Shown here: piece after piece, positions 2,497 to 44,129 of the stretch
How positions within the stretch are numbered: the first letter of the stretch is position 1
Layout: every line of letters begins with the position of its first letter
Assembly (NCBI RefSeq): GCF_963921235.1
Contig: NC_086108.1
Location: forward strand, 45,696,001 to 45,760,000
Origin: Mobula hypostoma
Lineage: Eukaryota
Direction: 5' to 3'
DNA: 64,000 nucleotides
Notes under the pieces: model-generated
The model's input: only the letters and a program-made list of their open reading frames with translations
Databases searched by the model: none
What the model was told of the DNA's origin: nothing
Translations under genes and position numbers: made by a program

Positions 2497-2893
2497 CTGG
2501 TTGTTGATGTAGCAGGGAGTCAGCAGCCGTCGTCTCCTCTGGTCTGTTCCTACCTCTGTCTCTTGAGTACACAGTCTCCGGAGGGGGTGAGTCCCCGAGT
2601 CTCTCGGGGACTGGATAAATCGGTCTATAATCCTCGGGAAGAACCAGATTGCAAGGATTCTCGCTGCTTTGCTGCCGCCTAAGGGCCACCTGGGCGGCCA
2701 TAACCCGCTGCCTCTCCAGGATGAGGATGCACTTGTCGCAAGTACAGTCTCTGAAGCGGCAGTAGCGCTTGTGGCCTTTCAGCCAGGACAGCACGCCGTG
2801 GTTCCGACACCTCGCACATTTGGGAGTTCTCTGGGACGGAGCTCGGGGAGACGCGGAGGGCATGTACAGATACGGAGCACCATAGCTATTCAT
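2497..2893 (-). CDS. dmrt3: DMRT3-like DM-domain transcription factor, coding exon 1 (exon 2 not found, probably left of the window); possibly a second dmrt3 paralog
   Basis: [11 protein letters not shown]...[55 protein letters not shown] matches the DMRT3-specific N-terminus and DM domain ([13 protein letters not shown]). ATG at 2893 is in a good Kozak context (ACCATG). Donor CCAG|GTGAG follows 2497 (phase 1). The region is CpG-rich. Confidence 0.88.
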
Positions 2894-3063
2894 GGTAGTT
2901 GAGCGAGAGTTCCGTGTCTTTTGCAACACAGGTCTTGATTCTTCCCCGGCAACCTTTTGGCAAATGAAAATTGCATTTAAGACATCAACACCGGAGAAAG
3001 CGCGAGTAGGATCCCTAGAGCCGGAGTGCGATTCATACACATTCCGCCTGCACCGCCTGGCTG

Positions 3064-3069
3064 TTTATA
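3064..3069 (-). promoter_or_regulatory. Candidate TATA box of the dmrt3-like gene
   Basis: CTATAAACAG on the minus strand, about 170 nt upstream of the ATG. Confidence 0.45.
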
Positions 3070-4069
3070 GGCAGTTATTTCAAGTCACTCAAGTGAAACG
3101 ATTTCAATGAAAGGATTGAAAATCATTTTTTTTCCGCCACAAACCTCTCCCCTTCCATTCTTTCCGAGAAGGGTTCAAAACAGCTCCACAATAAGACAAT
3201 TCTCAATGGGTTCGAGTGGCTGGAGGAGGAGATATAGGTGCAGAGAAAGGGCGGGTTCAGTCCATTCAACAGAGATTAAAAGCAAACGAGAGAACTGGAA
3301 GCGAGGTAATAGAGCTAATGGATCACTTCTTACAGATCCCATTTCACAAAGTCTTCTTCTTCTCCGTCTCTGTAAAACGGAAATATCTCGTTTTTTAAGG
3401 TGCGTCAAATTTCAGGATGCATTGTGGTCGTTGTCTGCTTTCACTTTACAGTTCAGTTTTTAAAAAAGTAGCAACCAGAAATAACAATATGAGAATTAAC
3501 TCCCTCTGTACATTAACTGAAATTTACACAGCGCAAGGTCACTCGGTTTTATTTTGCGTTGTCTGGTAACTCAAACCACGGGGAAGAGAGGGGCTAGCTA
3601 TTTAGCTCCTCCAGGTGGAATGAAGAGCTATCAACATTGTTTAAATGTGTCCCTGTACGGTCAATTTTGTTTTGTCTGTCAATAATTCACCTTGCTTCAC
3701 TTGTCTTGGGGCAGTCGGCGCGCTGAACATTGCGCGCGATCACCTCCTTCTACAACATTTAGTTAATACATAGGAAACACGGCTGATTCGAAGCGGCAGA
3801 ATTTATGCCGCATGATTTCACCCTCATGGAAACCACACACCTGAAACCCGTGAGAAAGTGCTCCGCTGGGAAAAAAGCCACAGTCTGTGATTTCAATCAT
3901 TCCAAACAATATGAAATTTTATTCTATCCGGGGGCATATGGTTGAGATTTGAAAGCACTAGGCACTTACACATAGGGAGCAAGGTGGGGGTGGGGAGGAG
4001 GAGCTTGGCTAATAGCCTTAAACATTTTTCTCTCCCTGGCGATCTTGTCCCTTTGGTCCTTGCAGCCTG

Positions 4070-4870
4070 CTTTCCATTGGTAACTACAATATGAACACGT
4101 AAGCCTTACCTCAGTGGTAGCGAAATTGCTGGAGAAAATCCGAAGAGCTAGGATGAATGTACATTTGGAAAGGTAGGGATAGTCAGTATGGTTTCTTCCA
4201 GGGGAAATCCTGCCTCACTAATTTGATTGAATATTTTGAGGAGGTAGAATATTTTAAGAAGATTAATGAATGCAATCCATATAGACTTTAAAGTATCCGA
4301 CAAATTCCAACATGGTGAGGTGATCCAGAACTGATGCCCCGTGCAGTCCAGGATGAGCTTCTAACCGGATCCAAAACTCTCAGCGATATGAAGCAAAGAG
4401 CAGTGGTGAGGGTATTGGAAGTTTGTGACAAGTGGTGTACCACAGGGATCAGTCCTGGCACCCTTGTTATTTGTGATATATATTTATATGTAGGAGGCAT
4501 GATCCGTATACTTGTAGAAGGCACAGAAGTTTGTGACAAATGGTGTACCGCAGGGATCAGTGCTGGCACCCTTGTTATTTGTGATATATATATATATGAT
4601 CCGTATACTAGTAGAAGGCACAGAAGTTTGTGGGTGCCGTTAATAGTAAGTTAGGATTTAGCAGGATATAGAATAGATGGGAGATCGAGTGGAACATGGT
4701 AGGTGTAAATTAATCCTGACAAGTGTGAGGTGATGCATTTCGGCAAGTGAAATAAGGGGGGGACAAACACAGTAAATGGTAGGGGTCTAAGAAGTGTTCT
4801 TGAACAGGGCGATCTTGAAGTTTGGGCTCCATAGTTCCCAGAAAATAGCAACACGTGTAGATAGTGTAGT
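4070..4870 (+). mobile_element. Degraded CR1 LINE RT fragment with internal tandem duplication (about 100-bp unit, 4418-4630)
   Basis: CR1 motif remnants ([17 protein letters not shown], CEVMHFG); repeat units start at 4418, 4526 and 4623. Confidence 0.75.
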
Positions 4871-4879
4871 GAAGGAACA

Positions 4880-5700
4880 GACTTTCCGCCTGTGATGTCT
4901 GTGCCTACAATGATGCCACTCTAAACTGGGCATTTGTTAACATGTAGTCTACATCCCTTCATTTTCTGTCTGTTCACTTGTCTGTTTAAATGCCTTTTAA
5001 CCTGAGCAGCGCATCCCATGTACCGACCACCGTATATGTGAAAAATGTTTGCCTTATAGATCTCCTTCAAACTATCCTCCTATTACCTCACACCCGTGCC
5101 CTCTACCATTTGCCATTTCCACTCTGATAAAAAAGACTCCGACGATTTACTTTGACTGTGCCTCAGCCTCAAACACTCCAAAGATACCAATCCACGTTTG
5201 TCCATCATCTCCCTATAGCTAATACTCTCTAATCCAGGCAACATTCTGGTGAACCTTTGCTGAAGCCTCCACATCCAACCTGTAACATGACGAACAGAGC
5301 TGTATACAAAGCTGCAAAGTTTTATACGGGTGCAATATGACTTCTCAATTTTTATACTCAACACCTGAAACCGATTAAGGCAAGTATACTGTACCGTTGT
5401 TTCCCATCCTGTCTATTTGTGTTGCCACTTTAGGGCGCTATGGGCTTGCACCCCAAGATCCCTCTGTCGTTTACTGTATATTTTCCTCCTACATTGACCT
5501 TCCAAGTGGAAGACCACACACTTGTTCAAAATAAATTCTATCTGCCATTCCTTTGCCCACATTTCCAAATGATCTATATTCTGCTGAATCATTTGACAAC
5601 CTTCCTCACAATTAACAACTTCAGCCATTTTTGAGCTCTCCGAAAACTTATAAATCGATCCAACTATGTTTTATCCAAATTATTTGTGTATATCACGAAC
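4880..5700 (-). mobile_element. Degraded CR1 3' fragment
   Basis: QQRFTRMLPGLESISYRE and WAKEWQIEF...KCVVFH in the minus-strand ORFs. Confidence 0.75.
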
Positions 5701-7319
5701 AAACAAAAATATCAGCCACTGGTCGCAAGCCTCCGTTCTTAACGACACCCCTCCATTGCTATTCAAAACGGAAATTGCGTTATTTAATGTCACGCAGCTT
5801 TCACCTCTCTTTTGATTCAATTTTATTCATCAAGTCCCCTTGAATTTGATATTTTAGTCGTTAAGCGTGGGTCATTGAAGAGCATCGCAAGTCATATTCA
5901 GAATTAAGGCTTGGATAATTTGGTGAATTTGTCAGCAGGAAAGGCGAATGCTGCATTTCACTCTCATTTTATACAGCCCTGCATCCCCAGATATTTTGAA
6001 TCCCATTATAAAACGAGTGTGAGGAAAATGCATTAGTTTGGCCTGCTTGTTTGACAATCGCCTCAGAGGGGTCACTGCGGTGGAAGCGGCGGCCGCACAT
6101 TATTCGATTCAGAGCGTGGCATGTCCCATTTGTTTGACTTGACTGGTGCCCATGAACTGCGGGGTTGAGAGTCCAGATTTGTTGGCTGACTTTCGGACGG
6201 TAAGCATTTTCAACACCTGTCACTTTCCTCTCCAAGGAGTCCACATACACACGAAAGTATAATCAGCAAGTGCTGGTAACAGGTTCCGGACAGAACTGGA
6301 ATTTTTTTCCCGTTCTGCCATTTAGTCGCAGGCATTAAATCCGTTTCCCTTTCCACATGTACTCTCGCAAACTATTTTCGACTTTTTCCTGTGTGTTTCG
6401 GAGAGCCAACATCCGCAGCATTTTACCATTTGTAGTTACTCAAATCGCTGTCGGGACGATAATTGAAATCTGGTTTCACTTCATTTTCCGGTGGCGGCAG
6501 GGTAACTGGTTCCTAGGACAGCTCGTGTATGTCAGGTTATTTCAGTATTTCTCTATAGCTGGGTGTATTAATAATAAATCGCAGTGCAAGGTTCAACTAG
6601 ACTGAGCTGTTCTAGCGAAATCAGAGACTTTGAGGTAAAGACGCTGCTCAGCTATCTGCGCTGCGACGGGCATCGCTGCCAAGAGGCTGACAAAGTTAAT
6701 GATTTATCATTACTGTTTTTAAAAGCAGCCCTGGATCCCATTACGGTCTCTCAAGACAGGGAATTTTTAAAAATGTTGCATTCTGAAAAGACCTTTAAAA
6801 TTCTCATTTCAGCATTGTAGCAATTCTAAAATGTTTTGTGCCCGTTGTTTCACAAAACTTTTTAATCGAAAGATTTATTTATTTTTACTGGAAAAATTCA
6901 ATTATGTAGATTTGGTATCAATTTTAAACTCAGTAATTTATTTTGTTTATACGACATTATTTATTATGTAAAGAAGTAACTCTGGATCTGGCCACAATCC
7001 CACGCAGTCTGGCTGAAGTGTCATTCAGGGTTAATTGAACCAAAACTAGTTTCATAATGGACCATTTCTCCATGAAAATTTTCCAATTGTGTTGCTGCTT
7101 TAATTTAAAATACATGTTTTATCTCGACAGAAATAAAAAAAATAATCACGGATTGACATGCCAGGTAAATCAAACTTGACTCCAATCAGAATTTTGGAAT
7201 TAATGTATTTCACATTGGTGAGATGTTTCAAGGTAATGCAATTTTATTTAAAACAGAAAAAAAACTGCAGATCTAACATTTAAGTTGATGTCTACCTAAA
7301 TCTAAAATTCAGGGAAATT

Positions 7320-9990
7320 CAATTCAAGATTGTTTTGTGTCATTTCCTTCACACAAACGTAAGGAGAACGAAATCATTGTTTACTCCGGATCAAATGGCA
7401 CAAAGAAAAACACAAACGATAAAGAACACAATAATAATAGAACACACACACTAAATGTAAATAGATAAGACAACTTATATGCATAGATTGATTGTATGTC
7501 CATAAAGAGACGCCAGCCTGCACATAAGGATACTGACGGGAAATAATAAAGTAGTGGCGGATTAGTGGCTGGGCGGCTCGGGGTAAGTAACTGTTTTTGA
7601 GTCTGGTGGACCTGGCATGAAGGCTACGTATCCTCTTCCCTGATGGGAGTGGGACAAACTGTCCATAAGCGGGGTGTTTGGGATCCTTCATGACGTTACC
7701 GGCTCTTTTCCAGCACCTTTCTGAATTTACGTCCTTGATGGTGAGTAGGCTGGTGCCAATGATGCGTTGGGCAGTTTTGACTACCCAGTGTAGAGACCTC
7801 CTGTCCGCCCCAGTGCAGTTACTGGAGCAAGCAGTGATGCAGCTTGTCAGGATACTCGCCGCTGTGTGTCTGTAGAATGATGTGAGTATGGATGTGCAAA
7901 CCCCATCCCTCTTCAGCCTCCTCATAAAGAAGAGGTGTTGGTGAGCTGTCTTAACTGTGCGTGATGTGCTCTGGGACCATGAGAGGTTGTGTGTGATGTG
8001 CACTTCCAGTTTCCACTGCTGTGCCGCCGGTGAAAAGGGGGAGGGAGGGGAGGTACGAGTCCTGAAGAGAAGACATTGTTGACATAGAGGAAGAGGTTAT
8101 TTGCCTAGCCTCCAGCTCTTCCGCCTCCTCTCAGTAGGCCGTCTCAACGTTGTTGACGATGGGCCCCACCCCATCGTGCCATTGGCAAACTTGACAATGT
8201 GACTACTTGGTTGTTTGGCCGTACAGTTATGTATGAGCAGAGTGTACTCTCAGTAATGGACTCAGCACATAGTCCGGCAGGGGTGGGGGGAGGCACCCGT
8301 GTTGAAGATAATAGTGAGGGAGGAGTGGCGGTACCCCCGACGATCTGGGGTCTGTTCGTTAGGAAGTCCAACACCCAGTTACATAGTGGCGTGTTTAGAC
8401 CGAGGAGTAGGGGTTTGTTCACCAAGGTCTGTGGGGCAATAGTGTTAAATCCAGAAAAGCATTCTGACATTAGTGTCCTTGTTTTGTAGGTGGGTCAGGA
8501 CCAGGTGCATGAGATCGTAGAGCGGTTCTGTCCGTAAGCATATCAGTGACTGTCCAGTGTGGCAGGAATGGAGTTTTTGATATGTGGCCATTATCAGCCA
8601 TACAAAGCACTCCATGATGATTGGTGTCAGTGCCAATGGGTGGTAGTCGTTCAGTTCTGAGTGTGTAGAGTTCTTTGATGCAGGGGTGATGGTGGCTGAT
8701 TTGAAGCATGGGGATGGCTGAAGTGTTGAAGATGTCCGTGAAGATGCCAGTGAGCTGATGTGCACACTCCCTGAGTACTCAGCCTGGGATGGTGTCTGGC
8801 CCGGCCGCCTTACGGCAAAGAGTCCTTCTCACGACTGCTGCTGTTACAGACAATGGCTGCTCGCCTGGGATGGGGGGGGGGGGTAGCTTTTGTGGCCGGC
8901 TTTGTGTTGGATGCCTTGAAGCGTGCATAAAAGTTGTTTAGAGCATCAGGGGTCACTGGAACAGTCGAAGCTGTCTTTCCTTGTGTAGTTAGTAATGACC
9001 CTGATGCCCAGCCACATACGTTGGGGATCATTATCAGACATATGTTCCTGAATTTCTTATGCGTGAGTGATTTCCATCTTTTTGATTCATAAGACGATGT
9101 TTCTCCTGGGGAGCACACCTGTATTTAGCCAAGGCTCCTAGTTGGGCCGTGAGGTGACCATTCTTGCCGGAGTAACGTAGTCTACACACTCACCGATGGA
9201 CAGATGATGCATATTCCTCGAGGTCTGTGTCTACTCTTAAGTATCTGCCACTTGGTCCGTTGAAACAGTCCTAAAGCATAAAGATCACCATATAGTGATT
9301 ATGGTCCTCCTCTCTGGTGTCTCCACTTTCTGCAGCAGTCGGTGTGCTGTGATTAACCTTATGGAGGTGTGGTCAGAGAGACCAAGATGAGGGCGTGAGA
9401 TGGCTTTGTAACTACCGCACTCATTTGTATAAACATGGTCTAGTCTGTTCCTTTGGTGACCATGGTGATGGGTTGATGGAATTTGGGTAAAATGTCCTGC
9501 AGGTTAACACGACTGAAGTCTCTTACATTTATGAAGAGAGACCGTCCGGATATTTGTTTTGTAGAGAGCTGATGATACTGTAAAGCTCTCCCTGTGGCGT
9601 CACAAACTCGGGGGGGAGGGGCGCGGGATGGACACAGCGGTGAGGAACACAACAGTAAACTTCCCGAGCAGGTCAATGTGGCTGGTACTTAATTGCAAAA
9701 TGTTCCATTTCCCCAGAACAGTGACTACTATCTAAAGGTAAGTGTGTGCACCAGCCTTTGTTAATGCACACACAGATTCCCCTCCTTTGGATTTCTCCGG
9801 AAGGGAATTCCGGTCTGCGTGGAAGTCATCTTGTCGAGTTGAAATGCCGAGTCTGGCATGCTGTTGTTTAACCATGTTTCGGTGAAAACCAGAATGCAGC
9901 AGTTTCTTATATCTTTCTGTGCATTCGTTCTCAGCCATATTATATAATTACAACTTATTTTTCGTTCAAAACAGCATTTACAGGAGATCT
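7320..9990 (-). mobile_element. Near full-length degraded Rex1/Babar-like LINE
   Basis: APE remnant (ILVFTETWL), RT remnants ([31 protein letters not shown]) and C-terminus (SILTSCITA...RLKNSYLPRA); multiple frameshifts. Confidence 0.85.
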
Positions 9991-10559
9991 CAGAATATAT
10001 TGCCACATCATGTACTTTCTCCCCAAACTTAGTGAATTTAAGTTGATTTTATGGCAAGGAAATTTTGCACTGCTGACATTCTTTGATTACACATTCTGTA
10101 CTGGGCAAGGCTTGAATCCCATAATAGTTCCATGTTGGCAGCTTTGTTCAGAAATAATAGAGCCATGTTAAAAATTCAAAATAATGACGCTACTTCTTCT
10201 ACCTTCCTTTCCTTAAGGATGCAATATTTTCACATTTTAAGTTGTTCTTATTCACAACTCTAGTAAAATGTGTCACCATTTTCACCCAAAGTTTGTGATA
10301 TAAATATGTTGATATATTTCTTGGTTGGACCTTGTTAAATAATGCAAGCTGTGACATTAGCATTTGTGAAAGTGTTTACATCAAAATCTAAGTGTAACTT
10401 CACAGTGTGTACTGGACAGTAATCAGAAATATGGATGTCTCATCATTGGTTTCTTTTATACTCTGCTGGGAACATGGCCAATCAATTTCCATCTAGCTGA
10501 GATCTGTTCGTTCTGCACGCACTGGGTACCAAATCCAGAACTTTGTCTTGATTTTTTGC

Positions 10560-10960
10560 CAGTCATAGAGCCATAGAAAACTACAGCACAGAAACAGGCC
10601 ATTTGGGTCATCTAGCCCATGCTGAACTATTTAAACAGCCTAGTCCCATTGACCTGCACCTGAACCATAGACCTTCATACCCCTCCCATTCACATATCTA
10701 TACAAACTTCTCTTAAATGCTGACATCAAAGCTGCATTCACTACTTGCGCTGGCAGCTCATTCCAGACTCTGACTGCCCTTTGAGTGAAGCAGTTTCTTC
10801 TCATGTTCCCCTTAAACATTTCACTTTTCACCCTTAACCCATGATATCTAGTTGTAGTCTCACACAACTTCTGTGGAAAAAGCCTGCTTGCATTTAGCCT
10901 ATCTATTCCTCTCATAATTTTGTATACCTCTATCAAATTTTCCCTCAATCTTCTATGGTC
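10560..10960 (-). mobile_element. CR1 3' end
   Basis: LIEVYKIMRGIDR...FTQRAVRVWNELP and a CR1-type 3' UTR. Confidence 0.85.
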
Positions 10961-11234
10961 CTTCCTTATAACTTCATGATGATTCAGGGATAAAGAAAAG
11001 TGCCACTTTTAATTCTCTATGCCACTCTCACTCTGACCCATTTTGGCCTTCTGCACCATTATAAAAAGGAACAGTACCTTATTTTCATTCTAGGCACATT
11101 GCAAACCTTCCTGTTGACCTGGCCCCATGCAATTAGATATTTTCCCTCTGAGATACTTGCACCTTCTCTGCAAGTCCAATTGTTTTCTCTTTCCCAATTT
11201 TGATGCAAGGTCTTCAACATTAATTCACATTTCC

Positions 11235-12175
11235 AACGATATTAGCATTCATTTTAAGAGGGTTAGAATGTAAGAGCAAGGGTGTAGTATAAAGGACGGG
11301 TGAGGTCTCACATGGGTATTGTGAGCAGTTTTGGGCCCCTTATCTAAGAAAGGATGTGCTGACACTGGAGAGCGTTCAAAGGTGTAATGAGAGACCTTGA
11401 CGAAGATGATAAGGACCCAAGTGTGGGGGTAGCCAAGACTAGGACGAGACACGATACAAGACTGAAACTAGAACTGAGCTCAAAACAAGACGCTAGGTGA
11501 CAAGTGAGCTTACGAATGAGCACTGAACCTCCATTCAGGTGCCCCTTAAATACTGAAATCCAGGTGCCAAAACATGGCAGTTAATTAACGGGACAGTCCT
11601 GAATCCTTAAAGCGGCTGCACCAGCTATCCGTACTCTGGAGAATTTGAGCACTGGGATTCCGGAAGCTGGTGCAGTTGAATGCACATTGTAACGAAAGGA
11701 CAGACGTGAAAATGATTCCAGGGTTGAATGGATTGTCGTATGAAGTATGTTTGATGGCTCTGGGCCTGTGTTCAATAGAATTCAGAAGAATAAGGGGTGA
11801 CCTAATTGAAACCTATCGAATGGTGAAAGGCTTGATAGAGTGGATTTGGAAAGGAATTTTTCTGTGGTGGGGAGTCTAGGACCAGAGGACACAGCCTTGG
11901 AATAGAGGAGTGTCGTTCTACAGCAGAATTGAGAGGGGATTTCTTTGACCAGGCAGTGGTGAATCTGTGAAATTCGTTGTCACAGGCTGCTGTGGAAGCC
12001 AAGTCTAAAGCATTTTTAAGATTCTTGATCAGTCACGGCATGAAGTGATATGGGGAGAAGGCAGGAGATGGGGGCTGAGAGGAAAATTGAATCAGCTTAG
12101 ATGAAAAGGTGGAGCAGACTCGATGGGCCAAATGGTCTAATTCTACTCCTATATCTTATGGTCTTCAGGTCTTAT
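11235..12175 (+). mobile_element. CR1 3' fragment interrupted by a solo LTR
   Basis: RRIRGDLIETY remnant; 3' tail ATATCTTATGGTCTT. Confidence 0.8.
11383..11694. mobile_element. Solo LTR (312 bp)
   Basis: TGT...AACG termini (TG...CA with one change) and 5-bp TSD AAAGG at 11378-11382 and 11695-11699; splits the CR1 sequence. Confidence 0.7.
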
Positions 12176-12627
12176 ATTCCCTGACTTGCTGTCCATTGTG
12201 ATTTTTAATTCATATTTCCTGCATCTGCTTTTTTTTGTTTGAATTTCATGCAGTTCAAACTGACCGCAAAGAATTTTCTATCTTCACTCAATTTCATCGT
12301 CACATTTCAAACTTGGATGTAAAACTTGCATTTTCCATTTTCATGGCCTCAGGATACCCTGAAGAAGTATTTTTGTAATGTACAGACACAGCCAGCCAGT
12401 TTGGATACATTAGACTGGAGTAATACTGGTAATTTGACGTTGCTTCTAGAACAGCACTGATTCAAGGATAAATATTGGTTCAAGCATCACATAAGTGTTC
12501 TGGAATAGTTTGAAAACTGCAAAAGGGTCCTTCACACCCTGAGCTGTTTTAGCGTGAGGCACCTTGAACCATTTTAATAAAAGTCAGTCAACAATTATAT
12601 TTTTGGTGAAAATATAAGAATCTAAAG

Positions 12628-12707
12628 CAGGGGTTCCCAGCCTTTTTTATGCTGTAGACCCCCACCATAAACCAAGGGGTCCATGGACCCCAGGTTGGGA
12701 ACCCCTG
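12628..12707. mobile_element. 80-bp hAT (Charlie-like) MITE
   Basis: TIRs CAGGGGTTCCCA/TGGGAACCCCTG; 8-bp TSD ATCTAAAG/GTCTAAAG. Confidence 0.85.
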
Positions 12708-13359
12708 GTCTAAAGGAATCAAGGTCATCTATACATGCAAACAATTCCCATCCTCACAGTTTCACATTTCCAGCTATGCCCTGCAGAATTGCACATCCTG
12801 TGCTGCCACCTTGAGAAACTTAGTGAAGTCACATACTACCTTTAAGTTTTAAAGCCATGCTGTTAAACTTTGAAATTGCCTAGTCATTGCATTAAGATCT
12901 GTTGAGAAAATTGTTACATCTGATAAGCTTCCTCCCTTTTCTTCCTTTTCCCTCTTCAGCAATATTGGAGGTCTTAATTGATAAAATACAGAATGGCTAT
13001 ATAGGAAAAATCACCCCCCCCCCCACAAAACTTATCTAAAATCTGAAATTCAAATATTTGTATAATTATTTTTCATAATGAAACAGTTAACTTCGGAATT
13101 AAAAACAGAATTAGTATAATGAATCTGAGTCTGAAGATTGAGATGAAAATTTTACCCCTAATCATATACAAAATAAAGCACAGGAGGGTATATTGGTAAA
13201 TCTACTGTGTCCATGTCACAAATGTTTTCCTTCAAACTAATTCCAGTTTGCACGCACCTAAAAAGGAAATGTGATGTAATAATGCTTTTCTTATCCTGAG
13301 GATGTTCTGATTCAGAGGGAAGAGTCAATAATGTGGCTCTCTGTTTGTGTAATTCAGGT

Positions 13360-33087: not shown

Positions 33088-33235
33088 CTGCCGTGACCTC
33101 AATTTCACCGGAAGTTTCGTTCACCCTTGGTGTCATGAGAGGGGAGATGTACCGAGGCCCAGAGAACAGTCTTGAACCAAGAAATGGAGCCGATGAGTAA
33201 TAAGATGATTGCAGTCCACAACTATTATCACGCAT
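33088..33235 (-). CDS. dmrtb1: dmrtb1/dmrt6-like exon 3
   Basis: Acceptor ttcctttttgacag|ATG (phase 0). LQSSYY...PRYISPL resembles DMRTB1 FQPSYY...PGYLSAL. Donor GCAG|GTGAG (phase 1). Confidence 0.75.
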
Positions 33236-35289
33236 CTGTCAAAAAGGAAATTAAATCTATCAACGGAAGCAAATGACTGGGAAAATGAATGAAATGAATA
33301 GAAGGCTCAAACTGAGAACAACATATTGATAAATCTATTAGAATAAATGGAATAAAGTATCCTGCCGCCCTCTGCTCTCTCATCCTGAATAACAACTGGG
33401 TGGCTTGTAATAGCAAAGCATTCTTCCACATCTGGTACAAATTCAAATCCATTCAAAATTCAGGATTCTTGGCATAGGACATAGAAAATATTACATTAGC
33501 ATAGCAAGGGGTACTCATCCTGCTGAGATCATGGTGCATGTATGTTGTACAGGGAGGCCTTAATTTGCTGTTCCAAGTTATCAATAGTCCACAGCTTTGA
33601 AAAACACAACCATTCCTAGCACTTGCACTCCTTGTTAACCAGCGTAAATAAAAACTTCTAATTCAATTGCATTTAGTGTACTTCTGTGCAAACTATGGAA
33701 ACTTTGTACATGGAGCTTAGAAAAAGAGGGCTATGGGTAACCCGAGGTAATTTCTAAAATAAGTACATGTTCAGCATGGCATCGTGGGCCAAAGGGCCTG
33801 TATTGTGCTGTAGGTTTTCTGTGTTTCTATGAAAGGATTTCAATAGTTGTGATAACCAAATTCAAAGTGACTGAGCTAAGAAGTGCATCAGTGTTAGCCT
33901 TGCTGACAATCAGGGATCTGATATGCCGCAGTTGACATAAAATCTCAGTTTTTATGACTATTCTGATAGGTGTGGCTCTGGTTAATTTAACTTGTTCTCT
34001 GCTTGATGGAAATGGACTATATTTGTTAAATGTGTTCAAACTGCTTCAGAAGTGGTGGTGGGGGGTGTGGTGGCGAGTGGAGAGTCACTTATCCTCAGAT
34101 TTATTACCATTAAGAGACAAAATTGATTAACTTAATTCAGATAAGGTTACATCAGTTAAAATGTCTTTCCTTGAATGGCCCTGTTACCAAGGCTACAAGC
34201 AGAAAAGCTGAAAATGGTTTCTGAGAAATTGAATAATTCTTGTACCGAACTGAAGAAAAGAAACTTCCAGTTATGTTCCTTTGAATTAGCAAACAAGAAT
34301 AAATACAGCATCTCCATAACTAACCTTTATCCAGCGGTACTTGGGAAGCTGGTTAAAATTCTGAGCTGGTGAACTGCGACTATACCTTTACCTCATACAT
34401 CATCTAATATTATTGGGAATTTATGATTTAATATATTTTATTATATTTTATGAATAGAATTTATAAGATACTTAATTAGTGATTTGCCTTTCTGCTGTTA
34501 AATAGGTGACTATCACAACATTTTTATTTCACAGTTTACAACCTGAGGCATGGTTTGTTGCTTTTTACATTTTTATGAAAAGAAACTAGAATATATTGAG
34601 GTTTAACCCATAGTCAGTGAGGCTACAGAAATGTAAGGAATTAACTTTCATAGCATTGCATTTTAATACATCCTCAGGACATTTTAGCAAATACTGTTAA
34701 ATAAAAAACACATTTACATGAACAGCAAACAGAATAATGCTATAGCAAAGAACCATAAACAGGAAGCTAGCTGATTCAAGAACAATGCATGCCCGTACAC
34801 TGTCTGAATACTCGCGTGGGTGTTTTTTAAGGTCCACTTAAACAAGCTTCAGTTTTAAATCTTACCTGAGAAGCATCTCACAGTCATTCTAGATTCAAGA
34901 ATAAGCACCATGTTCACCGTCAGTTTATCTAAATGGTCATGTATTGGTTTATTTAAAGGACAGATTTGCTTGTAAAAGGGCATTTTGCCATGTCATAAAC
35001 AAAAGTCATATTCTGAGAAGTTTATGAGAAATGCAAGGATTCAATATATCTCCAGAAACCTAAACTTGATTTTTCTCCTTTATATTCGTAAAATGCAGCA
35101 AATAATGGCAGTCACTATCCCACAAAACTTTGATTGGGAACATCATCGACAGTGCAGTACCAACAGCATGGTGTGAATTATTACTAAAACCTGAGATTTA
35201 CTGCTGGAATGGAGTTGCAGGGCATAACTCCATTAAAGGTAAAAATAGTTTGGATCTATTAATGTCTGTAACATTGTACAGTACATATT

Positions 35290-36000
35290 TATTGAATTGA
35301 ATTGACTTTATTACTTACATCCTTCATATACATGAGGAGTAAAAATCTTTGTTATGTTTCTGTCTAAATGTGCAATGTGCAATTTATAGTAATTTATCAT
35401 AAATATTATGTACAACAGGATTGTCAATATAACATAGAAATACAGTTGCGTCAGCATGAATTAAATCAGTCTGATGGCCTGGTGGAGGAAGCTATCCTGG
35501 AGTCTGTTGGTCCTGGCTTTTATGCTGCGGTACAGTTTCCCAGATGGTAGCAGCTGGAACAGTTTGTGGTTGGGGTGACTCGGGTCCCCAATGATCCTTC
35601 AGGCCCTTATTACACACCTGTCTTTGCAAATGTCCTGAACAGTGGGAAGTTCACATCTACAGATGGGCTATCTGCACCACTCTCTGCAGAATCCTGCGAT
35701 TGAGGGAAGTACAGTTCCCATACCAGGCAGTGATGCAGCCAGTCAGGATGCTCTCAATTGCGCCCCTGTAGAAAGTTCTTAGGATTTGGGGGACTATACC
35801 AAACTTCTCCAATAGTCTGAGGTGAAAGAGGCGCTGTTGTGCCCTTTTCACCACACAGCTGGTGTGTACAGACCACGTGAGATCCTCAGTGATGTGGATG
35901 CCGAGGAACTTAAAGCTGTTCACCCTCTCAACCCTAGATCCATTGATGTCAATAGGGGTTAGCCTGTCTCCATTCCTCTTGTAGTCCACAACCAGCTCCT
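35290..36000 (-). mobile_element. Rex1-like 3' fragment
   Basis: VERVNSFKFLGIHITEDLTW...AIESILTGCITAWYGN; (ATTGA)n tail. Confidence 0.9.
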
Positions 36001-36282
36001 TTGTTATAACCTTTTCTGTATTAATTTCTTGTTATAACCTTCATGAACATGACTCAGAGCTGTTACTCTTTTCTCCTTGATAGTTAATGGATTAAAACAA
36101 GGAAGCTTAGTTATTTCAGATACGACAGAATAAATGTTTACGCCACATGAAATAAAAGTATTAGCTCTACGGTTTCGTCCTTTTATGCAACATTTTTCAA
36201 GAATCAGTGATAAATTTATACATGCACATACATACGTATAGAGTATGTGTCTGTGTATTTATATGTATGTTGATAAACATAC

Positions 36283-36768
36283 ATAGTGATTCTACTTAAT
36301 TGGGCCGTCAGTTAATTGGGGGTGGGGGGGGCAGCTGTTTATTTGGGACAACTCTTACAATACAAAAACTAATTAAGTAAATAGCCGGAATTCCCTTTGT
36401 TTATTTAGAACACTGTACTGCTTAACTGAGGCAGGAAACTTAATTGAGGATGAACAGGTTCTAACTGGAGCCAGATGTGTGCATTTCTGTGGCCGTTGGA
36501 TGCTACACCATGCTTAAAGTGAAGGTTCATTGCATAACTGGATGAATTCCTCTGTCAATAGCTATTGGGAACTAATAAACAGTTTTATAGTACTGGAGTA
36601 GTATTGGTAATGTTCTAATTTGTTCTGTATTTCATTTAAATATGTGATTTGTTAATTCAGTTTGTCTTTTTAACTACTTCCATGTAACTTTGGCTAACTG
36701 GGGCAGCCATTTATTTGGACCAGAATGTACTGACCCCGATGTGTCTCAATTAACCAAATTCTACTTAT
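36283..36768. mobile_element. Possible Tigger/pogo-like MITE
   Basis: Degenerate inverted ends (AGTGATTCTACTTAATTG / CAATTAACCAAATTCTACT) and repeated TTAATTGGG motifs. Confidence 0.45.
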
Positions 36769-37016
36769 TTCCGTTTTACTGCAACAAATTTCACAAAAAA
36801 AACTTTGCACCACCATCTATTGACCACAGCTTGTAACTGCATTGATACAAGCAATTATGATTTTTTTTTAAAGAACTGCAACCTATACACTGAGATAAAT
36901 GTGCAAATTGTATCTGTGACACAGTAAAATTCAAAAATATGTTAGTGCCTGCGTTGAATTTTGACAACATACTGGTTGATGTTTTATGGATATACAGCTT
37001 GAGAATCTTTGTGGGA

Positions 37017-38132
37017 ACACGGTAGGCTCATTCAGAAAGTTAGAAGGCATGGGATCCAGGGAGGTTTGGCCAGGTGGATTCAGAATTGGCTTGCCTGCAG
37101 AAGGCAGAGGGTGGTGGTGGAGGGAGTACATTCAGATTGGAGGATTGTGACTAGTGGTGTCCCACAAGGATCTGTTCTGGGACCTCCACTTTTCGTGATT
37201 TTTATTAACGACCTGGATGTGGGGGTAGAAGGGTGGGTTGGCAACTTGCAGACGCCACAAAGGTTGGTGGTGTTGTAGATAGTATAGAGGATTGTCAAAG
37301 ATTGCAGAGAGACATTGATAGGATGCAGGAGTGGGCTGAGAAGTGGCAGATGGAGTTCAACCTGGAGAAGTGTGAGGTGGTACACTTTGGAAGGACAAAC
37401 TCCAAGGCAGAGTACAAAGTAAATGGCAGGATACTTGGTAGTGTGGAAGAGCAGAGGAATCTCGGGGTACATGTCCACATATCCCTGAAAGTTGCCTCAC
37501 AGGTGGATAGGGTAGTTAAGAAAGCTTATAGGATGTTAGCTTTCATAAGTCGAGGGCTAGAGTTTAAGAGTTGCGATGTAATGATGCAGCTGTATAAAAC
37601 TCTGGTTAGGCCACACTTGGAGTACTGTGTCCAGTTCTGGTCACTTCACGATAGGAAGGATGTGGAAGCATTGGAAAGAGTACGGAAGAGATTTACCAGG
37701 ATGCTGCCAGGTTTGGAAAGTATGCATTATGATCAGAGATTAAGGGAGCTAGGGCTTTACTCTTTGGAGAGAAGGAGGATGAGAGGAGACAAAACAAGAT
37801 AATAAGAGGAATAGTTAGAGTGGATAGCCAGCGCCTCTTCCCCAGGGCACCACTGCTCAATACAAGAGGACATAGCTTTAAGGTAAGGGGTGGGAAGTTC
37901 AAGGGGGATATTAGAGGAAGGTGCTTTACTCAGAGAGTGGTTGGTGCGTGGAATGCACTGCCTGAGTCAGTGGTGGAGGCAGATACACTAGTGAAGTTTA
38001 AGAGACTACTAGACAAGTATATGGAGGAATTTATGGTGGGGGCTTATATGGGAGACAGGGTTTGAGGGTTGGCACAACACTGCGGGCCAAAGGGCCTGTA
38101 CTGTGCTGTACTATTCTATGTTCTATGTTCTA
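37017..38132 (+). mobile_element. 5'-truncated CR1 LINE
   Basis: [38 protein letters not shown]; (TTCTATG)n tail; two frameshifts. Confidence 0.95.
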
Positions 38133-38404
38133 CACTGAGATCAGCCCCAATATCTGCACTAATGCAAATGCTGACAAAGCCATAGTTCAGGAGGAGGTAG
38201 GATAGATAATATAAAATTGATAGGTAGGAATTTGTAAGGACTCAAAGTAGAAATATCAGCCAGTCCAAATGGGGTGCAACCTAGACAATAAGGATGGAGG
38301 TAACAAGAATGCTGACTACTTTCTTCCAATCCCCTTTAGATTTGGAAATTGTGACAAAGGCTTGTAAATTTTCAAATATTAAATTCCTGTTAAAAAAATA
38401 AATG

Positions 38405-39370
38405 AGGGTCAACCAGCTCCCCCTTTGTTTCCCTGTTGCCTCTGGCCCCTTTACTTCTCTTTACCTTTACCCTCGCTTGCTCTCACATCCTACCTATCAT
38501 CCACACTTTCCTCCCTCTGGTTCCCCTCCTCCTTCCCTTTATTCCATGGTCTACTCTCCTCTCCTATTAGATTCCATCTTCTTAGAGGCTGATTTATACT
38601 TCTGTGTCAAATGGACGCCATAGGTATGGCGTAGCCGCGAACCCTACGCAGTGCCTACGCGGATCCCTATGCCGTAGCCTGACGCGCACCTCTCCCAAAA
38701 TGTAACTACGCATGGCGGCAATGCAGACCGCAACAACTGTGATTGGTCGGCTTGGCAGCATCGCATTTCCTTCTACGCTGCAATACCTTCCCTCTGGGCG
38801 ACTGAAGGGCAGGGAAGGAACTCTGGCTGCAATGCTTTCCATAAAGCCTTACAGACCTCCAAAATTATGGAGGACACATTTCGCTTTTACGAAAAAAGAC
38901 GCTCGCTTTAAACTTGTTTACCCCGAGAAAGACTACCATGACCATGAAGCCTTGCACGGGCAGGTGTGTGTGCATGCGCGACATGCCTGAATTGCAGAGC
39001 GATGCAGACACACCAACGCACAAGAATAAATACTCACAACGGCGTTGTTCACTTGCGTAGGCTACGGCGCAAGCTTGACGCACAAGTATAGATCAGCCTT
39101 TAGCCTTTTGCCACTTCCACCTATCACCTGTCAGCTTCTCACATTGTTCCTAGTTTCCTCCCCCAGCCCCACCTACCTACCTTCCCCCATTCACCTCAAT
39201 CCACCTGTCACCTGCCAGCTCTTGCTCCACTCCCTCTCCCCACCATTTAATTCTGGCTTCTGCCCTCTTTTCTTCTCTGCTCTGATGAAGTGTCAATGGC
39301 TCTTTTTCCACCTAAAGATTCTGCCTAACCTGCTGAATCCCTCCACTATTTTGAGCACGTTGACAAGGTT
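38405..39370 (+). mobile_element. Penelope 3' pyrimidine-rich remnant hosting a MITE
   Basis: Similar to the reverse complement of 16140-16530. Confidence 0.6.
38586..39099. mobile_element. 514-bp MITE
   Basis: 25-bp TIR AGGCTGATTTATACTTCTGTGTCAA (3 mismatches), flanked by TTAG on both sides. Confidence 0.85.
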
Positions 39371-39876
39371 TTAATATACTTGGCAAACTTCCCAAATTGA
39401 AAGTAGATTTTTAATCTGGGTAGTTATGAGATATAGTGTCTGAATGTGTGATGGAGGCAGATTTATTAGAAATTTTCACAGCAGAATTGGAGAGGTGAAA
39501 GATGAGCTCTGTCAAGAATGAACTGAAAATGGAACTGGTTTCAAAGATATAAAAACAAAATAAATGCTAGAAGATCCCAGGTCAGGCAGCACCTTTGGAA
39601 AGAGAAACAATCAGAACATGCAATCCTTTGTCGGCAACCACTTCAAAATTCCTTCGGTGCCATGACATGCCATGGTGTTGGGAGGACAGTACATTGAGAA
39701 GTGAGATATAATTGGAGTTCACATCCTAAGGAAATTATTACAAAGAAGAGTGTATTACATTCTAAAATTTCTAAATTACATCAACATCTTTTACACTTTG
39801 AAACTTCAAATACATTACAGCATTTAACTGAAAGTGGATTTGTAATTTTTTTTTGTTCTATTTAATAATGTCTTAC

Positions 39877-40151
39877 CAACATGGGGTTCGGATGGAATGC
39901 TCCAAGATTTCCTTGGACAGGCCTGAAGCTGCCTCTTGAGGCACACATCCCAGCTGGCACAGGAGCCCCTTTGTAGCCTGGCTGATTCATTGGAAAGCCC
40001 ATGGACAGGGGGTGATAACTGTAGACACTGCTGCAGTATCCCGTGTATAGCTTCGGTGGCAAGATATTCTGGTAAAAGCCACTGCTCATCACGTTCCTTT
40101 CAGCTTGCTCTTTACTGGCAGAAGTGAACTCTTGGTACAAAGCAGGATGAT
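39877..40151 (-). CDS. dmrtb1: dmrtb1/dmrt6-like exon 2
   Basis: Acceptor cctttccacatttag| gives phase-1 continuity (D-HPALYQE...). The peptide SVYSYHPLSMGFPMNQPGY...GSFRPV resembles the DMRTB1 YHPFPLGY...GFRHV segment. Donor TTG|GTAAGA (phase 0). Confidence 0.8.
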
Positions 40152-40434
40152 CTAAATGTGGAAAGGATCTCTCTCAGTCAATCCGACCAATCTTGAGCTC
40201 AAGTAGTAAAAAGCAAATAAACTAAGTTGTAAAACTTAACAGAAGGCACCACTGAAGGCTTGGCATTTGTTCTAGGCTTTGCTGAAGGCAATATTAGCAA
40301 AATTAGCTCCACTTCAGATTTCAGCTAGAAGCTACACAACTGGACACAGAGATAAGAAGGGGAACTTGTCTTCTATTGTGGAGCTTATTTGAACAGCCTG
40401 GTGAAGTTTCCTGACTAGGTTTACTTCAGTAGTA

Positions 40435-41240
40435 CTGGAATGCAACCATGCCAGATGAAGTTTAATGCAGATATGTGTGAAGTGTTGCACTTTGGGAGGA
40501 CAAACCAGGGTGAGACTTAGACAGTGAATGGCAAGGCACTGAGGTGTGTGGTAGAACAAAGGGATCTGGGAATACAATCCATGATATGTTGAAAGTAGCT
40601 TCACAGGGAGATAGGGTCATAAAAAGAGGTTTTGACACATTGGCCTTCATAAATCAGAGCACTGAGTACAGAAGTTAGGATGATAGACTGGAGCTGTATA
40701 ATACGTTGGTGAGGCCATAGTTGGAGTCTTGTATGCAGTTCCAGTTATCTACCTACAGGAAAGATATCAATAAGCTTGAAAGCATACAGAGAAAATTTAC
40801 ATGGATGTTGCTGGGACTTGAGGACCTGAATGACAGGGGTATGTTGAATATATATTACTTTATTCCCCGGAGAATGAGGCAAGATCTTATAGAGGTACAC
40901 AAAATTATGAGGGATGTAGATAGGGTGAATGCACACGGGATTTTTCCCCTCAGGTTGGGTGAGACTAGAACTAGAGGGCACAGGTTGAGGGTGAAAGGTG
41001 AAATATTTAAGGGGAACCTGAGGGGGAGGAACCTCTTCACTCAGAGTGTGTTGCGAGCGTGGAAAGAGCTACCAGCGGAAGCGGTGGAAGTGGGTTCAAT
41101 TTTAACATTTAAGAGAAGTTTGGATGGGTATGTGGATGAAAGAAAAGTGGAAGGCTATGGACTTTTACTGGTAGATGGGACTAGGTAGAAAACCAGGTCT
41201 GCATGGATTAGATAGGTGAAAGGACTGCTTCTGTGTTCTA
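40435..41240 (+). mobile_element. CR1 3' fragment in dmrtb1 intron 1
   Basis: LESIQRKFTWMLLGL...RTRGHRL...FTQSVLRAWKELP. Confidence 0.9.
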
Positions 41241-41664
41241 TCACTCCAGAACCAGGTACCAGTACAGACATATGGGTGGTGGGGTAATAAATTTGAGAAT
41301 CCCAAACATGTTACTGTGTGAATACTCAAGTGTTAATCCTGTTCAATATTCCTTCTCAAGTTGCTCCAAAAATTCCTTCATAGGTTCTCTTCTCCTTAAC
41401 TCTTCATCTCCTTTTGTTTCTCTCAACCCTCTATCACATTAGTAATATGTGCATACCTCCTTCATTTTCACACAACTATCAGCTGTACATTTAGTTACCA
41501 AGATCCCATAATCTGAAATTCCCTGCCAAAAGCCGCCAGTTCACTCTCCTCCTATTATTCTCCTCTACAATCCCTACTTTGATCACGCATCCAAATATAT
41601 ATTCCTCTGACATTATTTATTGCACATCTGATCTGCTATATCTTGCTCTTCTACATTAAAGATA

Positions 41665-42135
41665 TTCAAAGTTCAAATTTAAATTTATTATCAAAGTACA
41701 TACATGTCAACATATACAACCCTAAGATTTACTTTCTTGTGGATGTATTCACTAATTCTATAAAATAATAACCAGAATACAATCAATGAAAGACCACCCA
41801 ACTAGGGTGTTCAACCACAGTGCAGAAGACACCAACTGTGCAAATATAAAAATAATAACAAATAAATAAATAAGCAATATATATCAAGAACATGAGGTGA
41901 AGAGTCTTTGGAAGTGAGCCCATTGGTTGTGGGAAGATTTCATTGATGGGGCAAGTGAAATTGAGTAAAGTTATCTCTTTTGGTTCAACAGCCCGATGGT
42001 TGAAAGGCTATAACTGTTCCTGAACCTGGTGGTGTGAGTCCTGAGGCTCTTGTACCTTCTTCCTGACGGCAGCAGTGAGAAGAGAGCATGTCCTGGGTGG
42101 TGAGGGTCTCGGATGATGGATGCTGCTTTCCTGTG
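41665..42135 (-). mobile_element. Rex1-like 3' fragment
   Basis: HHPGHALFSLLPSGRRY-type coding remnant and a TTTGAAC tail. Confidence 0.7.
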
Positions 42136-43678
42136 TTTATATAGAAGGTTGTTGAATTGGTACTCAAACTTCAGGGTTTGTAATATATATCAGAACAACA
42201 GAACTACAGGGGTGTGGTTGCTCTGAGTGGTGTAGAGAGTTTTATTTTCAAAAATAAAGACATTTATCTAGATCCTTTAACAATTTTAGAATGTTATCAG
42301 ATTCAATTCCAACTGCTAATCTACTAAAAGTGGCAGCCAGTTTTCTCTTATAGGGCAATATGATAAAAACCACATAATCTGTTCAAACAGTATCTCCTGA
42401 GAGTTAAATTAGATGGGGATACGGGGCTTTTGAATCATTATGTTCACCTGAGAAAGCAGCCAGAGACTCAGGTTTATATTTATTTGAATCTTGGCATCTG
42501 TGGCAGGGCAGTACCTTCCGGTTTCTGCACTGGAAAGGCAGACTGAATTTTTGAGTACATATTTTGGGATGGAAGCACTATACTTGTCATTTAGGTCACT
42601 AAACTCTAAACTGGGTTTGTCCCAGGACTGGAAGACACTTTACCAGGACATGTTGGTAGTTTAGCCCCTAGACCTAAATTGATTACTTTAATTTGGCTCC
42701 TACCCTTAGACAACTCTAGTTTGAGAGCCCCTCCAGCGGAATTTTGCGGTGGTGATAATGGGCGAGGATCACTTCCGTGTGTTTAAAAGATGCTCACTGC
42801 TAAAGAACACCAGAGAATCAAACCCTTCAGGAAGCCTTGGGACTAAAGGTTGCGTCATTGTGTCCGTTGTTCACAACGCACCTTACTCTTTGCGACTTTG
42901 AGAACACAGTGCCGCCCAGGACTGCGGAGATTAATGTTTATTATTTTTGACCGTTTGGTGAAGACACAAATGTTAAATTTCCTATTTGTTCCGGATCTTT
43001 TCTTTTGTCCGGTGATCCAACACTTTTTCTTTCGCAGCTTGGTTAACGAAAACTGTTTTTTTACATGATAATGGGACCGCAATCCGATTTAAAACAAAGT
43101 GAGCAGAAACAACCGAGCCGCGACGGAAACACTACTTTACATTTCCAGCCGGAATTTAAATAAATTCCGCACCGGAAAAACGAAGTGGTCTAACTGTATA
43201 ACTGTAAATAGCAACAATTATAAATACCTCTTCATATATGGAAATGGGGGGGGGCGGAGGAAACAAATACTTTTGTGAAACACACTATAGTTGTAAGGGT
43301 TTTCTTTTAAACTTTATATCAAGGGAAGATATTAACATGAGCCTGTCATTATAATTTATAAAAGTTCGAAGCCGCAAATGTAACTAGAGAATTATTGAAG
43401 TTCTATGTTTAGTAATGCATGCAAAAGGAGGTATTTAAAAACGTTCAACAAGTCCAACCAAACGTTAAAATAGAAAACACGATAACCCCATGGTTTCTTA
43501 GAACGGTTTCAGTCTGATTCGATTTTAAAGAATTTAAAATACGGTTTAGCATAAAATCTTTTAAAATACTATACCTTGAATAAATGAAATAAATAGTTCT
43601 TCTCTTCTAGCATTTGAGTTACGAGCAGCTCTGCACGTTGTCAAGTATCTTAACTAATTTGCAGTTTTTCTCTCTTAC

Positions 43679-44129
43679 CGAATTGAGTAGAGGCGTGGAC
43701 CATGTAGGTGGAGACATTGTCCTTCCTCTCGCCACCGCCCTGTCTATCTTCCAGCCCCGAGGATCCACGCCTGTCCGGGAGAGAGGCTTCAGCCTCCGGC
43801 TGGGTGCTGTTGGTGGCCGGGCTCGGGGCCAGAGCTGGCAGTGGCTCCGGGGCAACAAGTGTGCTGGCCCCTGTGCTGTTGCCCTCTGCGGCCGAGCCCA
43901 GCTCCTCTTCCCGCTGCTGCTGCTTACGGAGCGCTTTCTGAGCTGCCATGATGCGCTGGCGCTCGGCGATCAGGAAACACTTGGGGCACTGGCAGTGGCG
44001 CCAGCTGCATACTCCGTGCCCCTTCAGCCGCACGTCGAAGCCGTGGTTCCTGCAGCGGGAGCATTTGGGAGTTCGCGGAGACTTGCTCAGCGTTCCGCCG
44101 CTTCTCTCCGTTTTCGAGCTCCCGGGCAT
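43679..44129 (-). CDS. dmrtb1: DMRTB1/dmrt6-like gene, coding exon 1 (DM domain)
   Basis: [13 protein letters not shown]...[35 protein letters not shown] and IMAAQK are DMRTB1-type. Kozak GGCATG, donor TTCG|GTAAG after 43679 (phase 1), GC/CpG-rich. Confidence 0.85.

Follow-up and report, generated by a model that had tools for sequence, protein, structure and literature searches.

A dmrt6-dmrt3b locus in the ray Mobula hypostoma as a probable retained sister of the dmrt1-dmrt3-dmrt2 cluster

Introduction

The kank1-dmrt1-dmrt3-dmrt2(a) cluster holds the main vertebrate testis regulator together with Dmrt3, which specifies gait-controlling spinal interneurons (PMC10169611). A 64,000-nucleotide stretch of the Mobula hypostoma genome (NC_086108.1, positions 45,696,001 to 45,760,000; this whole stretch is called the window, and its contig C50) raises the question whether this ray has kept a second cluster of that kind, since a gene of the DMRTB1 (dmrt6) type stands there upstream of a gene of the DMRT3 type, called dmrt3b below. 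An initial annotation of the window had proposed that the lineage kept the middle gene of a duplicated cluster, that is, an intact sister of the canonical one. This proposal is supported by a second triplet on another contig (C59), by the grouping of the upstream gene with DMRTB1 and by lrp8-, kank- and dmrt2-type flanks, and we consider it very probable that dmrt6, dmrt3b and a putative dmrt2b, all on one strand, form a sister cluster retained from whole-genome duplication, a reading carried mainly by synteny and compatible with the gene trees.

Two Dmrt triplets with paired flanks

A whole-genome search for DM domains gave 10 matches from 15 candidates, consisting of two same-strand triplets and several singletons. 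The triplet on the plus strand of C59 has genes of the dmrt1, dmrt3 and dmrt2 types at 54.93, 55.09 and 55.19 Mb, and that on the minus strand of C50 has dmrt6, dmrt3b and a gene of the dmrt2 type at 45.74, 45.70 and 45.63 Mb; the other matches are two DMRTA types (C50:68.64 Mb and C59:61.69 Mb), a degenerate DM domain beside the latter and a split DM domain on C31. A separate kank1-dmrt1-dmrt3-dmrt2 locus, which the initial annotation had proposed to look for in the genome, is present on C59, and the genome has two dmrt3 genes.

The flanks of the two triplets correspond as well. On C59 the order is dock8-kank1-dmrt1-dmrt3-dmrt2-smarca2-vldlr, with DOCK and KANK upstream and SMARCA and a VLDLR-type tail exon downstream, as in tetrapods (10.64898/2026.07.14.738559). 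On C50 we found kank4-lrp8-dmrt6-dmrt3b-dmrt2b, in line with the flanks predicted from the window: the dmrt2-type gene lies 66 kb beyond dmrt3b, outside the window on the left, and an lrp8-like gene and a kank paralogue lie on the other side. This dmrt2b candidate has a dmrt2-type DM domain and three exons and is distinct from dmrt2a, with which it shares three matching coding exons; an atlas look-up for its exon returned dmrt2 at 0.90.

Exons with the KANK KN motif lie upstream of both triplets and on the same strand as each (C50:46.107 Mb and C59:54.814 Mb), and the remaining two of the four genome matches are on C73 and C81, each of which carries one KANK gene without a DM match. We take the C59 gene to be kank1 and the C50 gene to be kank4, from their positions and from known motifs. 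DOCK genes occur on the same four contigs, LDL-receptor-type tail exons on three (C50:45.94 Mb, C59:56.32 Mb and C81:25.10 Mb) and SMARCA QLQ matches on C59 and C81 only, so that the triplets belong to a four-way paralogon, in blocks that are paralogous and collinear, as expected of ohnologues. The LDL-receptor-type gene of C50 (45.83-45.94 Mb) stands head to head with dmrt6, 87 kb upstream of it, and one of its propeller exons matches LRP8 best among the single-propeller receptors (83 bits, against 77 for LDLR and 69 for VLDLR). Further out, exons of NDC1 and of a multi-exon DIO gene lie at C50:44.78-44.89 Mb, 0.75-0.85 Mb past dmrt2b; both are presumably neighbours of DMRTB1 in human. The local order on C50 is not fully that of bony fishes, because MAGOH of that contig stands at a distance of 15 Mb and its DOCK gene at one of 7 Mb.

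Compared with the canonical cluster (C59:54.81-55.19 Mb), the C50 cluster has the same 1/6-3-2 order on one strand, KANK upstream and the same exon plans of dmrt3 and dmrt2. It differs in that all three genes are the sister paralogues, in having an lrp8-type gene between kank and dmrt6 where C59 has a vldlr-type gene beyond smarca2, and in being more compact (41 kb between the first two starts, against 164 kb on C59). Gene order, orientation, exon structure, open frames, dmrt3b splicing and the paired flanking families on C50, C59, C73 and C81 were all observed directly.

The dmrt6 and dmrt3b genes

A six-frame motif scan found two DM domains in the window, both on the minus strand and both confirmed by Pfam, with the dmrt6 match (E 1.1e-19) in frame 43653-44207; the remaining long open frames of the window are transposon-derived. 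The initial annotation was thus right in placing a DMRTB1-type gene upstream of a DMRT3-type gene on one strand (Table 1). Its estimate of about 26 kb between them has to be replaced: the gap separating the stop of dmrt6 from the start of dmrt3b measures 16.4 kb, and the two starts are 41.2 kb apart.

The dmrt6 gene (19337-44129) is intact, with GT-AG splice sites, a coding sequence of 945 nt with a single terminal stop and a protein of 314 amino acids (aa), whose identity over the whole length is 85.7% with Hypanus P0035 and 81.8% with Amblyraja DMRTB1 P0033. In a 24-row tree it falls into a 12-row clade of elasmobranch, coelacanth, amphibian, reptile, bird and mammal DMRTB1 (support 99/97), and the C59 gene groups with DMRT1. 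A search with the shark dmrt6 region likewise returned elasmobranch proteins first, then coelacanth and tetrapod DMRTB1, before DMRT1 (best 120 of 345). The gene also has four coding exons, the number reported for dmrt6 of tetrapods (PMC7689362), and the lrp8-like gene upstream. It is accordingly of the DMRTB1 and not the DMRT1 type, as first proposed, the DMRT1 slot being taken by the C59 gene.

The DM domain of elasmobranch dmrt6 has a peculiarity of its own (window 44000-44030, minus strand): the stretch from the second histidine to the following cysteine is shorter by one residue than in coelacanth and amniote DMRT6 and in other DMRT proteins. The window gene shows this spacing, and so do the three further elasmobranch proteins inspected.

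The downstream gene, dmrt3b, is also intact, with two coding exons, an open coding sequence (CDS) of 1257 nt and a protein of 418 aa. Its 3437-nt intron runs past the left end of the window, and exon 1 joined to exon 2 gives exactly RefSeq protein P0001. We mapped four public runs on the gene, which we guessed to be RNA, none being recorded as such. Three of the four contain the exact splice joint, two of them without any other letters in the joined contig, and in the fourth, from a relative, the joint is shifted by 3-6 nt; coverage is restricted to exons, untranslated flanks and short repeats. The starts of both window genes are rich in CpG (Table 1), at ratios of observed to expected CpG that compare with 0.32 for window 10000-42000 and 0.79-1.12 for the three genes of the C59 cluster.

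Table 1. Coordinates of the two Dmrt genes and their start regions (window positions unless a contig is given)
Feature	Position	Strand	Evidence
dmrt6 coding exon 1	43679..44129	-	ATG 44129; DM domain 43938-44075; phase-1 GT donor; Pfam DM; 66% in tblastn with shark model P0030
dmrt6 coding exon 2	39877..40151	-	275 nt; 81% identity to horn-shark model P0030; AG/GT sites
dmrt6 coding exon 3	33088..33235	-	148 nt; 78% identity to P0030; AG/GT sites
dmrt6 coding exon 4 with stop codon	19337..19407	-	tblastn match 19408-19346
dmrt3b coding exon 1	2497..2893	-	ATG 2893; DM domain 2690-2830; phase-1 donor after 2497; Pfam DM E 6.8e-25 (frame 2432-3064)
dmrt3b exon 2 (DMA domain, stop)	C50:45694200-45695059, 0.9 kb left of the window	-	Pfam DMA PF03474 E 8.9e-16
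Likely dmrt3b 5' untranslated part	2894..3370	-	Contigs of runs X1 and X6 continuous from exon 1 to window 3359 and 3370; contigs cannot fix the start site
CpG-rich stretch over dmrt6 start	43000..44300		CpG observed/expected 0.92
CpG-rich stretch over dmrt3b start	2400..3900		CpG observed/expected 0.80

Assignment of dmrt3b to the DMRT3 subfamily follows from the type of its DM domain, a DMA motif in the second, terminal coding exon and its grouping in trees. The DM domain is 92% identical to that of C59 dmrt3 (59 aa), against 66-84% for the remaining intact DM matches of C50 and C59. In trees built without DMRTA1/A2 rows, the gene lies within the vertebrate dmrt3 clade with support of 100/98 against invertebrate dmrt3 and 100/100 against dmrt1 and dmrt6. 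A profile search with exon 2 ranked dmrt3 proteins first among the matches listed, and the protein can be aligned with mouse, coelacanth, cyclostome and amphioxus dmrt3. It shares with bony-vertebrate DMRT3 (DMRTA3) the DMA motif and the two coding exons, and differs in being only 41-45% identical overall.

The gene is not the orthologue of canonical dmrt3a: the slot between dmrt1 and dmrt2, with kank1 and smarca2 as flanks, is occupied by the C59 gene, and dmrt3b is its paralogue. Both copies follow the same plan with one phase-1 intron after the DM exon. Their second exons are 35% identical, with the DMA motif and three short blocks kept. All eight zinc ligands of the dmrt3b DM domain are retained, and its recognition helix is identical to that of DMRT1 in the DNA complex structure 4yj0. 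The protein falls short of dmrt3a by about 30 aa and has a somewhat higher rate of evolution, yet it is under constraint, because identity between rays and sharks is 72-79% (79-84% for dmrt3a).

Distribution of dmrt3b

The exon-2 search found dmrt3b in 19 named species, 9 batoids and 10 sharks (12 clusters, with members listed for 6), and unnamed assembled contigs of 1.6-1.9 kb also encode the joined protein. Orthologues are full length, at 412-456 aa, across both groups. This single-sequence search missed even canonical dmrt3, so that its blank in bony vertebrates is no evidence, and profile searches were run for that reason. A profile of the two paralogues gave 447 proteins, and the best 120 of these comprise the same dmrt3b set followed by dmrt3a of sharks, chimaera and bony vertebrates. 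A HMMER search of 1.84 billion representatives returned, among the best 150 of 388, one dmrt3b representative and then dmrt3a and lamprey, hagfish and invertebrate dmrt3. We scored 141 proteins against both paralogues (12 from the exon-2 search, 110 from the profile search and 19 of the 149 other HMMER representatives); 14 are nearer dmrt3b than dmrt3a, namely 12 from elasmobranchs and two unnamed low scorers near a tie. No dmrt3b of a bony vertebrate or chimaera was found among the matches listed by either search (best 120 of 447; best 150 of 388). The chimaera gave one dmrt3 and a dmrt6-like model that lacks its DM exon.

Synteny beyond Mobula hypostoma was read from gene models and accession numbers. 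In Heterodontus, dmrt6 and dmrt3b are fused in one model of 1055 aa (P0030), with dmrt6 first. Amblyraja, Leucoraja, Hypanus and Scyliorhinus canicula have consecutive RefSeq accessions on one contig for the two genes, which presumably denote neighbouring gene models, and in Narcine, Stegostoma and S. torazame the two models are each on an equally long contig.

In Amblyraja (P0016/P0033) and Leucoraja (P0003/P0414), RefSeq files dmrt3b and dmrt6 as isoforms X1/X2 with consecutive accessions. This filing and the Heterodontus fusion may reflect read-through transcription or only an annotation error. Several elasmobranch dmrt6 orthologues are named 'dmrt1-like' and one dmrt3b is named 'dmrt3a', so RefSeq names of shark Dmrt genes (dmrt1-like, dmrt3a, DMRTB1 isoform) are unreliable for expression studies.

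Age and origin of the second cluster

We propose that one of the early whole-genome duplications of vertebrates copied an ancestral dmrt1/6-dmrt3-dmrt2 block, and that sharks and rays would have kept the second dmrt3 copy, which bony vertebrates, and possibly chimaeras too, have apparently lost. In identity dmrt3b stands equally far from both sides: it is 41-45% identical to shark and chimaera dmrt3 and 42-45% to bony-vertebrate DMRT3, against 64-67% between ray dmrt3a and bony-vertebrate DMRT3. In a tree of 30 proteins the dmrt3b clade (100/99) falls outside a group of cyclostome dmrt3 and dmrt3a (92/86, not starred), on a long stem branch of 1.3-1.7 changes per column.

Several observations weigh against a sister cluster of that age. 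A union of dmrt3b with the dmrt3a genes of cartilaginous fishes is not rejected by approximately unbiased (AU) tests (p = 0.082; in a set trimmed to 22 rows by removal of the cyclostomes, one teleost and five near-duplicate rows, p = 0.084), and neither is a clade of dmrt3a and dmrt3b (p = 0.139, log-likelihood 2.95 lower) or a grouping of dmrt3b with cyclostomes (p = 0.139). In the 22-row set dmrt3b stands at an open fork, and the tree program warned that its long stem meets a long outgroup branch. The putative dmrt2b is so named from its position beside kank4-lrp8, and the three-repeat LDL exon of the lrp8-like gene is closer to VLDLR and LDLR chains than to the LRP8 chains compared. A motif scan found no GLIS-type zinc-finger exons in the 176 kb past dmrt2b, and a blastn comparison between C50 (554 kb) and C59 (285 kb) found no paralogous non-coding elements, matches beyond the best non-coding candidate not having been traced singly: 31 of 4794 matches lie outside locally repeated DNA, and four of them are the coding exons. 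The apparent absence of dmrt3b from bony vertebrates and chimaera, finally, was read from protein collections and a published table, not from genome searches.

The best non-coding candidate of that comparison, which pairs C50:45.533-45.535 Mb with C59:55.123-55.124 Mb, turned out to be a dispersed repeat of old age. Cyclostome dmrt3 was also considered as an orthologue of dmrt3b, from shared residues after the DM domain; the free tree joins cyclostomes to dmrt3a, and the AU test cannot tell.

Because the AU tests reject no alternative grouping, the position of the duplicated block, and not the tree, carries the case for a sister cluster. The phylogeny called for by the initial annotation therefore settles one part of its claim and not the other: it places the upstream gene with DMRTB1, and the protein tree of dmrt3b gives by itself no date for the duplication.

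As to which duplication made the sister cluster, the first round, which preceded the divergence of lampreys and hagfish, seems to us the likelier source. A quartet of the KANK exons pairs C59 with C73 and C50 with C81 (5 sites of 233, against 2 and 1 for the other pairings; bootstrap 56), a weak sequence signal that would fit a first-round split and that also counts among the reservations. The C50 receptor tail exon scores 57 bits against C81 and 49 bits against C59. We assume that the C50 block matches a chicken chromosome other than the two that have been paired in this connection. Those two, chicken Z and chromosome 28, are described as sisters dating from after the first round (PMC10013865). 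These are weak hints, and all three speak against the variant in which the sister cluster is real and stems from a second duplication confined to jawed vertebrates. That variant, which we count within the sister-cluster reading and hold to be a lesser possibility, agrees with the small log-likelihood cost of the dmrt3a and dmrt3b clade and with a published placement of the dmrt1/dmrt6 split at the second round (PMC7689362).

Among readings that deny a sister cluster, the one that survives best makes dmrt3b a later single-gene copy of dmrt3a in the cartilaginous-fish lineage, inserted between dmrt6 and dmrt2b and fast-evolving thereafter. The AU values for grouping it with cartilaginous-fish dmrt3a, its presence only in elasmobranchs among the matches listed, its long stem and the lack of shared non-coding elements between C50 and C59 would all suit such an origin. 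It would require, however, a DNA-level copy that kept its intron and entered the exact paralogous slot, in the right orientation, between paralogues of its normal neighbours; moreover, dmrt3b is no nearer to shark and chimaera dmrt3 than to mouse, bichir and coelacanth DMRT3, and the free tree sets it outside all dmrt3a. We therefore regard this origin as improbable.

That dmrt3b is a decaying or non-functional copy, as its automatic name 'truncated-like', its shorter length and its somewhat faster evolution might suggest, is very improbable given the open CDS, correct splicing, the full-length orthologues in batoids and sharks and the intact zinc ligands and recognition helix; the name is borrowed, being found also on hemichordate and amphioxus dmrt3. 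A misreading of the ordinary dmrt1-dmrt3-dmrt2 cluster, to which the RefSeq names 'dmrt1-like' and 'dmrt3a' could point, can practically be dismissed, since C59 carries the canonical triplet between its usual flanks, the upstream gene falls with DMRTB1 in the tree and the C59 dmrt3 is the copy close to bony-vertebrate DMRT3.

Relation to described Dmrt clusters

The closest described arrangements are dmrt6-dmrt2b of gar and coelacanth and kank4-lrp8-dmrt2b of teleosts, with the same neighbours, order and strand as on C50 (PMC6737965, PMC7689362); bony-fish neighbourhoods are given as kank4-lrp8-dmrt2b and lrp8-dmrt6 (PMC7689362), and the distance separating the dmrt6 DM exon from that of dmrt2b is 9.5 kb in gar, against 45 kb in coelacanth (Table S1, PMC6737965). 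The difference is the middle gene: gar, coelacanth and chimaera are listed with one dmrt3 each (PMC6737965), whereas the ray has an intact dmrt3 between dmrt6 and dmrt2b. In earlier work dmrt6 was traced to early duplications (PMC3636272), dmrt1 and dmrt6 were left as unexplained vertebrate additions (PMC6737965), the sister chromosome was modelled without dmrt3 and with no shark included (PMC7689362, 2020), and another study mentions, in the passages covered, only Dmrt1 for sharks (10.1101/2025.03.13.642935).

The gene itself is not wholly new, being predicted automatically in RefSeq and having been listed for a skate in 2019. Table S1 of that study places dmrt3a, dmrt3b, dmrt2b and a dmrt6 pseudogene of the little skate on unplaced contigs (PMC6737965, 2019), and its Leucoraja erinacea 'dmrt3b', listed without linkage, is very likely the same gene as our RefSeq orthologue P0003. 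The portion of the main text covered does not discuss it, and the trees there may show it (PMC6737965). The place of dmrt3b in a complete sister cluster appears not to have been described before: we found no description of the three-gene dmrt6-dmrt3-dmrt2b linkage in the literature, where subscription papers and preprint supplements could hold one. For the little skate there is also a full-length dmrt6 model of 316 aa (P0414), at variance with the pseudogene call (PMC6737965).

An intact sister triplet would fix the ancestral state, with three genes in the block when it was copied and the middle one lost in bony vertebrates. Sharks are known to retain ohnologues, so that the present case is less surprising, and the result is a correction to the history of the Dmrt family. 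A broader account, in which we place about even confidence, is that the three-gene cluster was assembled before the first duplication, so that the ancestor of dmrt1 and dmrt6 predates it, and all three genes were doubled together, that rays hold a near-whole ancestral jawed-vertebrate Dmrt set from which bony-vertebrate sets arose by losses, and that dmrt3b is a second specifier of locomotor interneurons. If so, that specifier would act in animals that walk or fly with fins.

Proposed function of Dmrt3b

The DNA sites predicted for Dmrt3b are the DMRT sites that Dmrt3a binds, because its zinc ligands are kept and its recognition helix is that of DMRT1 in 4yj0, and on DNA it should be capable of pairing with further DMRT proteins. 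Its set of cofactors is likely to differ in part, since beyond the DMA motif and three short blocks its second exon has diverged so far from that of Dmrt3a. The two genes may, with chances that we judge evenly balanced, divide the ancestral Dmrt3 jobs in dI6-type spinal interneurons and in forebrain and olfactory patterning, which would be the likeliest reason why both were retained. The main alternative, a germ-line or gonadal role beside dmrt6, strikes us as possible and rather doubtful. In either case dmrt3a and dmrt3b offer a natural pair for studying the split of Dmrt3 functions, with skate and catshark embryos as workable material.

Other Dmrt genes and minor features

The split-DM gene on the plus strand of C31 has its parts at 104127-104264, 179010-179135 and about 236040-236411. 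Its DM domain is divided by a 75-kb, largely satellite intron, with the second half in frame after an AG acceptor. A frame further on matches PF15791 weakly (DMRTC1/C2; E 0.0021, 18.9 bits where the cut-off is 27) in a stretch chosen by that family itself, as one of five weak genome matches, and an atlas look-up for the exon returned generic DM clusters. The gene looks like dmrt7/DMRTC2, and its DM sequence presumably resembles that of DMRT7. Published accounts confine dmrt7 to mammals and reptiles (PMC6737965; 10.64898/2026.07.14.738559).

The degenerate DM domain on the minus strand of C59 (61667598-61669061) has lost zinc ligands, has a DMA-like frame behind it and lies 23 kb from the DMRTA-type gene. 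By position it is likely a decaying dmrt93B, dmrt4 and dmrt93B being known as a tandem (PMC6737965). If both identifications are true, the dmrt7-like and the decaying dmrt93B-like genes would bring rays to a near-complete ancestral jawed-vertebrate Dmrt set.

Around the C50 cluster, a tandem repeat with long open frames lies about 5 kb past the dmrt2b stop (C50:45616200-45617400). At C50:44778388-44893128 the DIO exons (46 kb apart) and the NDC1 exon (35 kb apart) each occur twice, through local duplication or an assembly artefact. Besides the spliced MAGOH gene of C50 there is an intron-less open copy at C66:55632887-55633297, likely a retrocopy. Within the window, retrotransposon fragments, which we take to be of the long terminal repeat (LTR) type from their translations, lie immediately upstream of the dmrt6 start (44628-46541, minus strand), and an open reverse-transcriptase frame of 515 aa at 60426-61973 on the minus strand presumably belongs to a long interspersed element (LINE).

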